Assembly (NCBI GenBank): GCA_010093815.1
Contig: ML996567.1
Strand: one strand, 5' to 3'
DNA: 64,000 nt
From: Pseudovirgaria hyperparasitica
Lineage: Eukaryota
Within the stretch, counting starts at the first letter, position 1. Each line of letters opens with the position of its first letter. The notes beneath the pieces are model-generated. The model had not been told where the DNA came from. It saw only the letters and a list, made by a program, of their open reading frames with translations, and searched no databases. This document shows, in pieces, positions 45,889 to 50,159 of this stretch. The position numbers and the translations under genes are program-made.

Positions 45889-46721
45889 TTCGCTATCGTG
45901 CGTGATTATCAACTGCGTGACCTACAGCACTGTGGCGATGGGCTTGATATAATCATATAAGCCCATACATCAGAGCGGAGATGGACAGGGCCCGCACTTC
46001 TCCGATAAGTCGATTGCTCGAAACACTTAATTACACGACATCAGTCTGAGCGGCATGTGGCAAAGCGCATGAAAGTCTAATTGCTTTTGTCTCAGAAAAT
46101 CCTATGTTATTCAAGGTCTTAACTTTAGTGTGACGTGGGCAGACATGGATGGCGGGAGCCTGCAGTGAACTTGGACCTTAGTAGGAGGCCCCTCATCTGC
46201 TTACTAAGTGAAGTTACCAGTAGAACTTATAGTTTTCTTCCAGTCCGGTCATGTTCTAGTACCTATCTAGGATCGAAACATACCTTAACAGGAATATTAC
46301 CTCTCAATAAGCACTGATGCAAGACGAAGATAATACCGTTGCATGTGCAAGCCATGCCCATAGATTCAGTATACAGTATGTCTGGGGTAAGTGGGAGAAT
46401 AGGACCGCCGGTACTTCAAACAACACCGTGCTGTCATGCTCGGGATCCTTTCTCGGCATTTATCAATCTTAAGTGTATGCTGCCAGGATCTCCCCGCGAG
46501 ATGAACGCATGGATCGGCGCTTGGCCAAGTCGATGGATGCTATGTATAGCGGCCCTATACCTGTAACAACCGAAGGAGGTCCACTAATAGGTATGTCCCT
46601 GAAAGAGGGGAACTGTAATCAAAGCGTGAGCTAGATATCGTTATTATATTGAGGCTACGCCATCTCTCAGCTCTATTCTCTGTTTGTTTCACGGCCATTA
46701 CTCACTTTGATCTTGGCAATC

Positions 46722-47972
46722 ATGTTAGTCCATATGTATACACTGCGAAAAGCAATCGTCTTGGGCCCACTCTTCGCGGCTTGCACGCTTGGTGAAGACT
46801 TATTTGTGTCGCATTATGCCGGTCATGTTTCTTCTTTGTCTCTGCAAGGGACCAGTCTTACCGAAACATCCAAGGTGAAAGCCTGTGGATCGCTACCGTC
46901 ATGGCTCACGTTTGAGCCTCACACCACGAAGACTTTGTACTGTTCCGATGAGCAATCTGACGGTGGTCATGGCTCTCTCAGCGCCCTAAGTATCACTGAA
47001 GATGGGAAGCTTACGCCCCAGGTGAAGGTGGATGCTCCTCCGAGTGGTGTAGCTAGCACTCTGTACGGTGGTGACAGTGGCATCGGATATATCGCGATCG
47101 CGCATTAGTATGTATGGTTCAAACGATTGCCTCACAACCATACTAATCGTGGCAGTGGATCATCAACGGTCTCAACTTTCAAGCTGCCACTGACAGCTGC
47201 GTCGACAACGCAGAGAACATTCAATTATAATCTATCTTCCCCGGGTCCCGATCCAGCCAGACAGGATGCTTCTCATCCACATCAGGTGCTCACTGATCCA
47301 ACGGGCGCGTACATCTTTTCGCCTGATCTTGGAGCCGATACTGTTCGCGTCTACTCCGTCGAAAAGGAAAACGGAATGCTGAGCGAATGTCCTGGTCTGA
47401 ATGTGACCGGTGGTTCAGGGCCGCGACATGCTGCATTCTGGACGCCACCTTCATCGTACTCGCGCATCAGTCGTACGAGAGCAGGGACCAAATTGTTTGT
47501 ACTCAACGAGCTGAAAAACACGATAAGTGCTTACAGCGTGTTTTATCCCGCACACGGGTGTCCGTCGTTCAACAAGACTCAGGAGTTGAGTCCATACCCT
47601 GAGAACAAGGCAGCTCCTTCCGGTGCTGGTGCTGGTGAAATCCATGTCAACGGCCAATTTATCTACACGTCGAATCGGAATGACGGGTCGTTCTCTGGTA
47701 ATGACTCCATAGCAACATGGTCTATCTCGCCCATGGGCGACATGTCGTTCCTGACCTTGACGCCTTCTTATGGCTCATACCCACGGACATTTTCGATCAA
47801 CAAGGCCGGAGATAAGATGGCAATCGGAAATCAAATATCATCAAATGTTGCAATTGTTTCCAGAGACACGGAGACAGGCCGGTTGGGTGAATTGGTCGCA
47901 AATTTGAGAGTCGGCCCAGTCGGAACGCCGAAAAAGGGAGACGGTCTGAGCAGCGTCATTTGGGCGGAGTGA
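46722..47972 (+). CDS. Secreted lactonase-like beta-propeller (6-phosphogluconolactonase / muconate cycloisomerase family)
   Basis: Signal-like N-terminus, RQDASHPHQVLTDPTG..PDLGAD, GSGPRH, YTSNR, YPRTFSINKAG. One intron ~47108-47155. Confidence 0.88.
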
Positions 47973-48310
47973 GGGAAAAGAATCCAGTTTGCCATAGTTA
48001 AGAGACGCTGGTACCATATCCATGTATCGTTGTCGGTGTGTGAAACTTTTGAGGTTGTAAACTGACTTCGTGCGACGTGCCGCGCCGCGCACGGACTCAC
48101 GGAGGCGTGTGCGCGGTGACAGCTTTGAATGTCATCACGACAAAAAGAAGCCTCAGATGACGCGCAGCAAAAGATATACACAAGACACTAGAAGATTCAG
48201 CCAAGAGGATCCCGGCTCCTCCTAGAAATATCTATTACAGAACTCGCCGGTCAAATCTCCGCCGCTCCAGTATTCAGGATCCTACGAGAAATCAGAAACT
48301 CCTCATCGAA

Positions 48311-49510
48311 ATGAAGACTGACAACTACACTAATCTGTGCCTCGAGCAGGCGGCCTCCTCTCCCCTGCACTTCCGACATGGTTGCATCATCGTCAGCGGC
48401 GGCAAAGTCCTCGGACGCGGCTTCAACGACTATCGCCCAGGTTTCAACAGCGGCGTCCTGAAGAGTGGCCGCACGGGCTTGTCCACCTCCATGCCTGCTG
48501 CGACCCAGCACAAGACAAAGTCCAAGTTGTCGAAGCACAAGCCAAAGCCCAAGCCAAATAATCGGGGCTTTTCTATGCCGTTGTCCCTGCATGCCGAGAT
48601 GGCTGCCATCCACTCCGCTCTAGCCACCTCCACCGCGAACTCTGGCAGGATCCAGTGTTCTCTTAAACCGACGTTCAAAGTACCGGGTGGTTCCAAACGA
48701 AAACGAGCCCGGGCAGCCGTTCTTGAGGAGTACGTCGCCCGGGTTTGTGCCGCAGAGCCGGCCACCGGCAAGCTGCAGGTTCAAGAGTCGGGTTTTGAAG
48801 GGCCTGCATATCAACCAGAGTGGAGGGAACAAGAATGGCAAGCACAAGGTGTTGGTGAAGAACGAGAATGGGAAGGAGAAGAATTCGAATGAGCGTTCGG
48901 AGCGCGAGGTGAAATCCAGTCCGTCGGGGGCTAAGATTTTGTCGTCGTTGAAGCAGCAAAGACATAATGATGTCCGGCAGCGGGTGAAGTATCCGGGTCT
49001 TCATGGCGCGGATCTGTATGTTGCTCGTCTCTCGAACACGCCCGCCTCACCGTCTTGTGGTCATGATGTCTCAGAGCCTAGGTGTGTTGACTCTTCAGAC
49101 TCCTTTCAATCACTGACCAGCGTAGCAGCGCGCCTGCCAAGTCATCTCGGCCGTCGAGTCTGTCCTCGCTCCACGATGAACTCAGTGATGCATGTCATAT
49201 ATCAGAAGTCTCAGCGACTGTCACAGAAATCACTGTTCCGACACCGCGAGCCACATGTTCTCGGCCGTGTTATCGCTGCATCACATACATGCACTCTGTC
49301 GGAATCAAGCGCGTATTCTGGACCACGATATCAGGCACATGGACCGGATCCAAGGTGCGCGATCTAGTCGATAGTCTGGACTCGTGCAGCTTGGAGGACA
49401 CAGGGCATGAGGGTGACGACGAGCTTGGAAACACTGGCATGTTCGTCACAAAGCACGAAGTATTGCGAATGAGAAAGGCCATGCGCGGAGAAGATGGTGT
49501 TGAGGTTTGA
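48311..49510 (+). CDS. Zinc-dependent CMP/dCMP-deaminase-like protein split over three ORFs in two alternating frames
   Basis: RHGCIIVSGGKVLGRGFN and SLHAEMAAI in ORF 48311-48892; LHGADLYVARL in the +1 frame (ORF 48687-49367); SLHDEL..SRPCYRCITYMHSVGIKRVFWT back in the first frame (open 49091-49510). Confidence 0.85.
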
Positions 49511-49579
49511 TATCTCTTGGTATCATAAAGTTCCTTTTCTTTCCACATAGAGAAACCAAGTATCTTTATATGTTCTTCT

Positions 49580-50159
49580 TGTGAAAAGGGCAGGTATAAA
49601 TAGATATATAATATTCCTTATATAAGGAATATATATCTAAATAGAGTTATATAATAGGATCTAGCCGTAATAGACTATTATATAATAAACGGATCGGCGG
49701 AGTATAGCTTAAAGATAATAAGAATATAGTATAATTCTTAAAGTAAAGACTAGATAGAGAGAGAACTAAATACATAGAGAGACCGTTCCTTATATATTCC
49801 TCCTTATACATTCTAGATCCTTCTCTTAATTAATAATAGGAATCTTCTAGACCTCTAGACGTACGTATACGTTCTATAGCTCTAGTAGTTTCCTTAGAAT
49901 AGAATAGAGTAGAGTAGAACTCTATAGAACTTATAGACTCTATAGTAGAACCTAATAGAACTCTATAGAAGTTCGTGTTTCTAAAGACCTCTAGAAGTTT
50001 CTAGAGGGTTCTAGAAACTTCTATAAGAGTATAGAGTATTTATATATATAAGTAGATAATATTAGTAATATCGATTACTAATATTAAGCTATTCCTAATA
50101 AGGAAATACCTTATATAAACTTATTAGATATAGTAGAGGTTAAGTTTATACTTCTGTCA
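49580..50159. mobile_element. RIP-degenerated AT-rich relic, probably a solo LTR
   Basis: Sharply bounded ~580-bp block, very rich in TpA/TAG/CTA and depleted of CpA/TpG. Termini TG..CA (TGTGAAAAG..CTTCTGTCA); flanks CTTCT / ATTCT (4/5 match, possible TSD). Confidence 0.6.

Follow-up and report, generated by a model that had tools for sequence, protein, structure and literature searches.

A conserved +1 offset between the zinc-binding halves of a diverged fungal deaminase, possibly bridged by ribosomal frameshifting

Positions 48311 to 49510 of a 64,000-nucleotide (nt) stretch of Pseudovirgaria hyperparasitica DNA (contig ML996567.1; the whole stretch is called the window below) encode one diverged zinc deaminase in three pieces. 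The reading frame changes twice within the gene. The second change is an ordinary intron, but the first is not: it lacks canonical intron signals, and the same +1 offset recurs in all the orthologous loci that we examined, far more often than chance would allow. Our preferred explanation, which we hold tentatively and which could well be wrong, is that the two halves of the enzyme are joined by a conserved +1 programmed ribosomal frameshift.

The first open reading frame (ORF), called ORF-A here, lies in frame A (position mod 3 = 2), carries the HAE motif, and ends at a stop codon. Its peptide landmarks are MKTDNY..HAEMAAI..KRKRAR..YVARVC..GKLQVQESGFE, and the part past 48797/48800 is the unshifted tail. 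Protein searches showed that orthologous unspliced ORF-A proteins exist. Frame B, one nucleotide forward (+1), is open from 48624 to 49367, overlaps frame A by 269 nt, and holds GADLYVARL at 49005 to 49031. Frame A is open again from 49091 to the TGA at 49508 to 49510, and this part holds SLHDEL and PCYRC. A previous description made from the letters of the window alone (the sequence-only reading) had given the same arrangement of ORF-A and its stop, of GADLYVARL in a +1 frame open from 48624 with an overlap of about 270 nt, and of SLHDEL and PCYRC back in the first frame; frame translation confirmed all of it. The parts of the gene are as follows.

48311 to 48892, plus strand: ORF-A, from ATG to TGA (48890 to 48892), frame A; the N-terminal half of the deaminase.
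48590 to 48598, plus strand: HAE zinc-binding and catalytic motif, frame A; its H and E are invariant in a 52-sequence alignment.
48798 to 49081, plus strand: putative frame-B coding part (KGLHINQ, linker, GADLYVARL, DVSEP), with substitutions at frame-B third positions; its β3 strand is modeled with a predicted local distance difference test (pLDDT) value of about 90.
49082 to 49128, plus strand: intron 2, GTGTGT..CACTGAC..CAGCGTAG(CAG), with in-frame acceptors (TAG and CAG) at 49125 and 49128; used by the public gene model.
49129 to 49510, plus strand: last exon, frame A (SAPAKSS, SLHDEL, SRPCYRC with PCYRC at 49265 to 49279, GIKRVFWT, FVTKHEVL, and the stop); 316 homologues.

The public NCBI/JGI model of this gene, P0001 (790 amino acids [aa], 100% identical), joins AAVLEE to FKSRVLK by removing 48730 to 48778 and joins DVSEP to SAPAKSS by removing 49082 to 49128. 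An assembly indel, which the sequence-only reading had raised against its own proposal, is ruled out as the cause of the frame break because contigs from four sequencing runs (two samples from two studies, one of which samples may be the assembly's own source) each span 46500 to 49540 unbroken and free of joints, with 0 differences and 0 gaps. These four runs are unspliced everywhere, including in the upstream gene, and therefore behave as DNA.

The gene is best read as a Pezizomycotina-wide, highly diverged zinc deaminase of the cytidine deaminase (CDA)/dCMP deaminase type. The family is large, with 316 and 241 matches at E values of ≤1e-3 in two protein searches, and only filamentous ascomycetes were named among the matches seen. 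Annotated orthologues exist in, for example, Hortaea werneckii, Baudoinia panamericana, Venturia, Diplocarpon, and Lachnellula. We take the named homologue genera to be members of the Dothideomycetes, Leotiomycetes, Sordariomycetes, and Lecanoromycetes. Against the PF00383 profile, which only the N-terminal half reaches, ORF-A of the window scored 23.7 bits (E = 4.7e-05), under the 25-bit gathering cutoff; P0001 scored 28.3 bits and homologues scored 29.9 to 34.1 bits. A search of NCBIfam with the deaminase gave no match, the best sequence match in the Protein Data Bank (PDB) was a dCMP deaminase with an E value of 0.15, and a Foldseek search against the PDB gave weak matches only (E of about 0.5).

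A structural model was made with AlphaFold2 (AF2) from the 52-sequence alignment, not for the window protein but for P0132, a homologue with a short linker. The inserts pull its mean pLDDT down to 59.9, but the core elements have values of 70 to 92. The order of the core is α1-β1-β2-(insert)-α2 (HxE)-(linker)-β3 (GADLYVARL, pLDDT of about 90)-(insert)-α3 (PCYRC)-β4-β5-α4, and the P, C, Y, R, and C of PCYRC on helix 3 are all invariant in the alignment. When the model was compared with 48,161 chains using VIA-align, the top 25 matches were all deaminases of the CDA superfamily (Z scores of 8.7 to 5.5), among them 3dmo (8.7), 4p9c (8.2), 2w4l (8.0), and ADAT2 (7.4). Because these matches span residues 1 to about 314, the HxE half and the PCxxC half belong, as modeled, to one CDA fold. 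The sequence-only reading had held that both zinc-ligand halves are needed in one chain, and the model and its match to cytidine deaminase agree with that.

The HxE and PCxxC motifs and the core fold are common to this family and to the CDA/dCMP superfamily, which includes the cyanophage S-TIM5 dCMP deaminase (4p9c), the B. pseudomallei cytidine deaminase (3dmo), human DCTD (2w4l), and TadA/ADAT2. In contrast, sequence similarity is very low, and the fungal family has three large insertions: after β2, between α2 and β3, and between β3 and α3. The α2-β3 insertion, which is 70 to 220 aa long, is the linker that holds the first frame change. A classification of the deaminase fold (PMC3239186) mentions ascomycete deaminase clades; its available portions mention neither this family nor any frame break.

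Orthologues for the comparison were taken from fungal metagenome loci, which gave 434 pattern matches, of which 158 were confirmed and 80 were kept (L001 to L080). From these, 36 nonredundant representatives were anchored on an in-frame TTTGAA (48794 in the window), i.e., they were selected on that word. The sequences are phylogenetically related, and thus the counts below are not counts of independent events. An FKS-type motif is in frame +1 relative to HxE in the window and in all 42 of the 42 pattern-matching loci among the 80. The distance from FKS to HxE takes eight different values (178 to 256 nt), and every one of them is 1 mod 3. The junction block is in the same register in 72 of 81 sources, and eight odd loci likewise go from frame A to frame B. 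Indels through the junction are multiples of three. Both the +1 offset and the overlap to which the sequence-only reading had drawn attention proved to be conserved across the examined orthologues. The frame of GAD relative to HxE varies among loci (0, 1, or 2) because textbook introns lie elsewhere in the orthologous genes, such as GTAAGT..GCTAAC..CAG (52 nt) in L018, GTAAGC..CTGAT..CAG (49 nt) in L020, and GTGAGT..GCTAAC..CAG (53 nt) in L008.

Unspliced ORFs did not join the halves: HxE was found in 0 of 54 non-NCBI C-terminal ORFs, and PCxxC was found in 0 of 24 non-NCBI N-terminal ORFs. The single exception to the split ORFs is P0254, the closest relative seen, a 182-aa ORF on a Logan run-assembly contig. 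It (HAEMAAI.., ..YPRLHGADLYVARLSNTP) has HAE and GADLYVARL in one ORF, from which the whole linker and the junction block are absent, and it stops where intron 2 of the window starts. P0254 could be either a genomic deletion or a spliced transcript; no cDNA-like contigs were found among the 80 loci, where L011 and L013 differ by a 45-nt in-frame deletion between direct repeats. At one further locus, L073, a 1-nt difference from L071 and L074 in a C6/C5 run (at about 3200, 385 nt after HxE and far from the junction) throws the rest of the gene out of frame. The difference has no connection with the conserved junction and probably reflects an assembly error or a polymorphism.

The first frame change falls within a short conserved sequence. 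That block and the two candidate slip sites are as follows.

48776 to 48799, plus strand: the 24-nt block CAG GTT CAA GAG TCG GGT TTT GAA, ultraconserved, at the change from frame A to frame B.
48794 to 48800, plus strand: UUU GAA G, the likeliest +1 site (UUU in the P site, skip G, read AAG), with A-like substitutions on its 5′ side and B-like ones on its 3′ side.
48662 to 48668, plus strand: in-frame CUU AAA C, a candidate +1 site specific to this species, lying where frame B has already opened.

Across the 36 representatives, the block reads CAG GTT CAA GAG TGC GGT TTT GAA and is nearly invariant, with synonymous change suppressed within it. Its TTTGAA is invariant in these representatives, which were chosen on it, and elsewhere the variants CTTGAA, TTTGTA, and TTTGAT occur. 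Upstream of the block, substitutions between close pairs of sequences (74 pairs) are distributed 260/226/461 by frame-A codon position, including synonymous variation in the Y-V-x-x-V-C motif. In the block codons CAA, GAG, TGC, and GGT, the changes are 1/4/13 by frame-A position; for example, a change between CGA and CGT is silent in frame A and exchanges D and V in frame B. Right after TTTGAA, the changes follow frame-B third positions, with counts in successive codons of (7,8,2), (11,4,0), (8,0,0), (4,0,0), (0,4,0), and (5,0,0) among 42 pairs from 54 unique sequences, and the residues that frame B encodes at these codons are conservative (K/N, x, L/V/M, H, L/V/I, N/D). Because the substitutions flip from frame-A to frame-B third positions at U UUU GAA (48794 to 48800), the switch most likely lies there; given as an interval it is 48776 to 48800, with 48794 to 48800 preferred. 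Judged from the close-pair substitutions, the FKSRV stretch may itself be read in frame A. Of the two +1 sites that the sequence-only reading had proposed, TTT-GAA-G at 48794 is thus the favored one, and CTT-AAA-C at 48662 is not conserved, orthologues having GAA AAA C in its place.

The junction resembles a stretch near the N terminus: FNSGVLK, in frame A at 48440 to 48460 (family consensus, F-D-G-G-A-L-K), is similar to FKSRVLK, in frame B at 48780 to 48800, and some orthologues have FNSGVLK or FNSRVLK in frame B. The echo could be chance or an old internal repeat.

If the halves are joined by a +1 frameshift, translation would initiate at the ATG at 48311, and frame A would supply HAE, a basic KRK stretch, Y-V-x-x-V-C, and G-K-x-Q-V-Q-E-x-G-F. 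A fraction of the ribosomes would move ahead by one base at U UUU GAA and from there read frame B through K-x-L-H-L-N-Q, the disordered linker, and the GADLYVARL strand. In P. hyperparasitica, the intron at 49082 to 49125/8 would then align PCYRC and the C terminus with the preceding parts. Ribosomes that do not slip would end a truncated frame-A product at 48892. A conserved +1 offset, indels in multiples of three, absent intron signals, and a conserved block at which the frame flips are the usual comparative signature of +1 frameshifting; joining at the time of translation, the exact codon, and any regulatory meaning are what we infer.

Programmed +1 frameshifting is known from a handful of cellular eukaryotic genes (those for antizyme, ABP140, EST3, and some YIP3 orthologues). 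The yeast +1 sites are CUU-AGG-C in Ty1 and ABP140, CUU-AGU-U in EST3, and GCG-AGU-U in Ty3, and the antizyme sites are UUU, UCC, or GCG followed by UGA. The putative deaminase site is like these in that a +1 shift would occur in a short conserved sequence. It differs in its A-site codon, GAA, which is not a stop codon and is not one of the classical rare codons, and in the openness of both frames around it: the zero frame meets no stop for tens of codons past the site, and the +1 frame has none over the roughly 60 codons that precede it.

UUU is the P-site codon of the antizyme genes of Agaricomycotina (PMC5009743), and GAA, AAA, and CAA are read by tRNAs with mcm5s2U34, whose slow entry into the A site raises +1 shifting in yeast (PMC4627075). 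In yeast, slow entry of hypomodified Lys-tRNA into the A site makes an engineered CUU-AAA-C shift +1 (PMC4627075); the CUU AAA C of the window is identical to that heptamer. A known parallel in filamentous fungi is PaYIP3, which encodes a Rab-GDI displacement factor. It is likewise a cellular gene of Pezizomycotina with two overlapping ORFs, a long-conserved offset, and a noncanonical site (PMC3777964, PMC5009743); the same papers also cover antizyme. The efficiency of PaYIP3 frameshifting in a yeast reporter was low, 1% (PMC3777964), and the YIP3 shift in Pezizomycotina is mostly −1 (PMC5009743, PMC3777964). In contrast, the proposed shift in the deaminase is +1, has no supported RNA structure, and cuts through one catalytic domain. 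Our literature search, which reached parts of the papers, returned no description of a frame break in this deaminase family, and this is not proof that none exists. If the frameshift is real, three features would make it unusual: its conservation in several filamentous ascomycete classes, its place within a catalytic domain, which would limit production of the enzyme to shifted ribosomes, and its lack of a known heptamer. Such a case would also provide a new system in which to study recoding signals and the translational gating of a deaminase, possibly one with a nucleic acid substrate.

Several observations weigh against a programmed +1 shift. UUU-GAA-G is not a described +1 heptamer, the GAA in its A site is not a stop codon and not obviously rare, and some lineages vary TTTGAA in the ways given above. 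The window has a GTACGT..CAG pair that the public model uses, and the relatedness of the sequences inflates the apparent independence of the counts. In deep comparisons, frame B (S-G-V/A-L/F-N/K) looks conserved inside the block too, and because of this the exact site of the shift is uncertain. No stimulatory RNA structure was supported: RNAalifold gave 0 pairs, fold z-scores were −0.7 to +0.55, and the hairpin UUCAAGA/UUUUGAA, although 91% paired, had no covariation and was equaled in 88 of 500 shuffles. An Rfam search gave one subthreshold microRNA match, outside the gene.

The last point concerns stop codons, which are depleted on both sides of the block, something that a single precise shift site does not predict. 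Frame B is stop-free for a median of 64.5 codons upstream of the block, back to an unavoidable TGA inside HSEMMA, and frame A is stop-free for a median of 65.5 codons downstream. Compared with synonymous-codon shuffles, the frame-B stops upstream were 5 versus about 32.6 expected in 28 loci (a ratio of 0.15), and the frame-A stops in the first 60 linker codons were 24 versus 83.6 expected (0.29). Ratios for four control combinations of frame and region were 0.84 to 1.02. In many Dothideomycete-like loci, the first frame-A stop, about 190 to 360 nt after the block, is at one conserved place, TCT AAG (frame B, P-S-A/V-S-K); unshifted products of these loci therefore end alike, in ..T-T-A-I-C-V and the stop.

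The depletion of stops would be expected if there were a "shift window" of about 375 nt in which both frames are kept stop-free and ribosomes have several chances to slip +1, with UUU-GAA being the main one; the output of deaminase would then be set by the wobble modification or the supply of tRNAs. A slip anywhere in the disordered linker would yield a complete deaminase, which would otherwise be silent and might act on nucleic acids. Frame A is rich there in codons that mcm5s2U34 tRNAs decode. From HxE to the block, AAA accounts for 74% of the frame-A Lys codons (127/171), compared with 20% (55/270) in the N-terminal part of the gene; the corresponding values are 50% and 29% for CAA and 42% and 16% for GAA. 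We give this elaboration only a slim chance of being right.

The main alternative to frameshifting is that P. hyperparasitica splices out the stretch that P0001 removes, whether constitutively, in a regulated way, or with retention, to join AAVLEE to FKSRVLK, and that other species use weak introns of their own. The stretch is the following.

48730 to 48778, plus strand: 49-nt GT..AG stretch, GTACGT..CTGCAG, the intron of the public model; doubtful, with a length that restores the frame.

Its GTACGT donor is perfect, it has a CAG acceptor, its length is 1 mod 3, the models P0100 and P0134 join at the same point, and in 11 of the 36 representatives a GT..AG pair with an acceptable donor is present. 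However, it is 71% GC, compared with 0.48 for intron 2 and 0.53 to 0.58 for the exons, it has no CTRAY branch site, and its last 30 nt are free of T apart from the CTG of the acceptor. Enumeration in the window gave 136 frame-restoring GT..AG pairs, none with CTRAY. Among the representatives, 25 of 36 offer no GT..AG pair that combines a GTNNG-type donor with a length of 1 mod 3; CTRAY is found in 0 of 36. The window owes its donor solely to the G at the end of the codon that precedes TAC GTC, and the donor is missing in most orthologues, which read AAA TAT GTC, GCC TAC GTC, and the like at this place. In many species, the AG at the acceptor position is replaced by CAA, CAC, CAT, TAC, CGG, or GGT, and the loci without it include L007, L008, L010, L011, L016, and L066.

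Splicing would also have a cost to the protein. The stretch encodes Y-V-x-x-V-C, which is under purifying selection in frame A and would be deleted; only about 31 nt lie between the codons of this motif and the block in the window and in L001. If intron lengths were random, the lineages would not all share an offset of 1 mod 3, and P0001, the source of the intron, is a dubious model that also fuses the upstream lactonase gene. Public models disagree about where the "intron" is even within a species or genus (P0017 and P0025 of Diplocarpon, P0046 and P0088 of Venturia, P0055 and P0064 of Hyaloscypha, and P0103 and P0100 of Recurvomyces). By these comparisons, the first frame change lacks canonical intron signals and is not an ordinary intron, and we consider splicing of 48730 to 48778 unlikely. 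The sequence-only reading was right that the stretch is GC-rich and has no branch site, but the comparison argues against it as a general repair of the first shift, most orthologues lacking the donor.

Joining could instead occur at the RNA level by unconventional means, i.e., by a tiny or non-GT-AG intron, by cleavage and ligation of the Ire1 type, or by deletion or slippage during transcription. The conserved block without a known recoding heptamer would fit such a process, as would the words CUGCAG and CCGCAG near the block in some species, which resemble Ire1 loop motifs. Yet CNGCAG is not conserved among orthologues, which have CTCCAG, CGCGGG, CTGCAA, or CTGTAC instead, and we rejected Ire1-type motifs on that ground; the two CNGCAG words of the window are 23 nt apart, which is 2 mod 3. 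The T run, of only 3 to 4 nt, is too short for transcriptional slippage. Such joining is not known to have a precedent in fungal nuclear genes, and we regard it as improbable. Two further candidates were rejected. A 40-nt GT..AG mini-intron (−15 to +24 relative to TTTGAA) has an AG that is not conserved and an interior with frame-B codon periodicity, and a 13-nt ribosomal hop from GUU to GUU would come down on GAT or ATT in several lineages.

The two frames might never be joined, with ORF-A and ORF-B dual coding and giving separate products (a truncated N-terminal protein, and a C-terminal one from internal or non-AUG initiation) that perhaps assemble noncovalently. The depletion of stops for about 60 codons on each side, upstream for frame B and downstream for frame A, is in keeping with this, as is a seven-codon patch about 120 nt upstream of the block in which frame-A third positions are fixed while positions 1 and 2 vary and frame B reads a conservative N-Y-R-V-x-I/L-N. 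However, frame B has neither a conserved ATG nor a single near-cognate start, and the frame-A tail, although open, has little conservation of residues. In the model, the frame-B part supplies β3, a strand at the center of the sheet in a single compact fold. Separate products thus seem a poor prospect. That the gene is a decaying pseudogene with a frameshift mutation, as the frame break and early stop in the unshifted frame might suggest, is scarcely credible: all catalytic motifs are intact, as the sequence-only reading had argued, there is purifying selection on both sides of the break, and at least four fungal classes retain the break.

Unlike the first frame change, the second needs no special explanation. 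Intron 2 is 44 or 47 nt long, with a GC content of 0.48 to 0.49 (versus 0.53 to 0.58 for the exons) and CTGAC 9 to 12 nt from its 3′ end, and its removal restores reading to frame A. By its sequence it is canonical and unremarkable, and it is lineage specific because nearly all orthologue loci carry the GAD strand and PCYRC in one frame, the exceptions being the window and L065. The sequence-only reading had suggested that the alternating frames could be an on/off switch that keeps a potentially mutagenic nucleic acid deaminase silent; the second change, however, is by its sequence simply an ordinary intron with a branch site.

Upstream of the deaminase, at 46722 to 48310, P0001 merges a 7-bladed lactonase (PF10282), the ORF of which ends with a TGA at 47970 to 47972, with the deaminase by means of a 272-nt "intron" (47969 to 48240) whose sole CTGAC is 175 nt from its 3′ end. 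Orthologous deaminases begin at their own MKTDNY, and the fusion is probably an annotation artifact. The same fusion occurs in models of Amniculicola (P0089) and Dendryphion (P0110), and thus the synteny of the lactonase and deaminase genes is conserved. The public models of the deaminase family are inconsistent, with introns at differing places and lactonase fusions, and they would need reannotation. Directly 3′ of the gene, positions 49520 to 50100 are very AT rich and have many short repeated words (TCTAGA, TATAGA, and TAGAAC). The contigs of all four runs stop about 65 nt past 49540, which suggests that their ends mark a repeat boundary.

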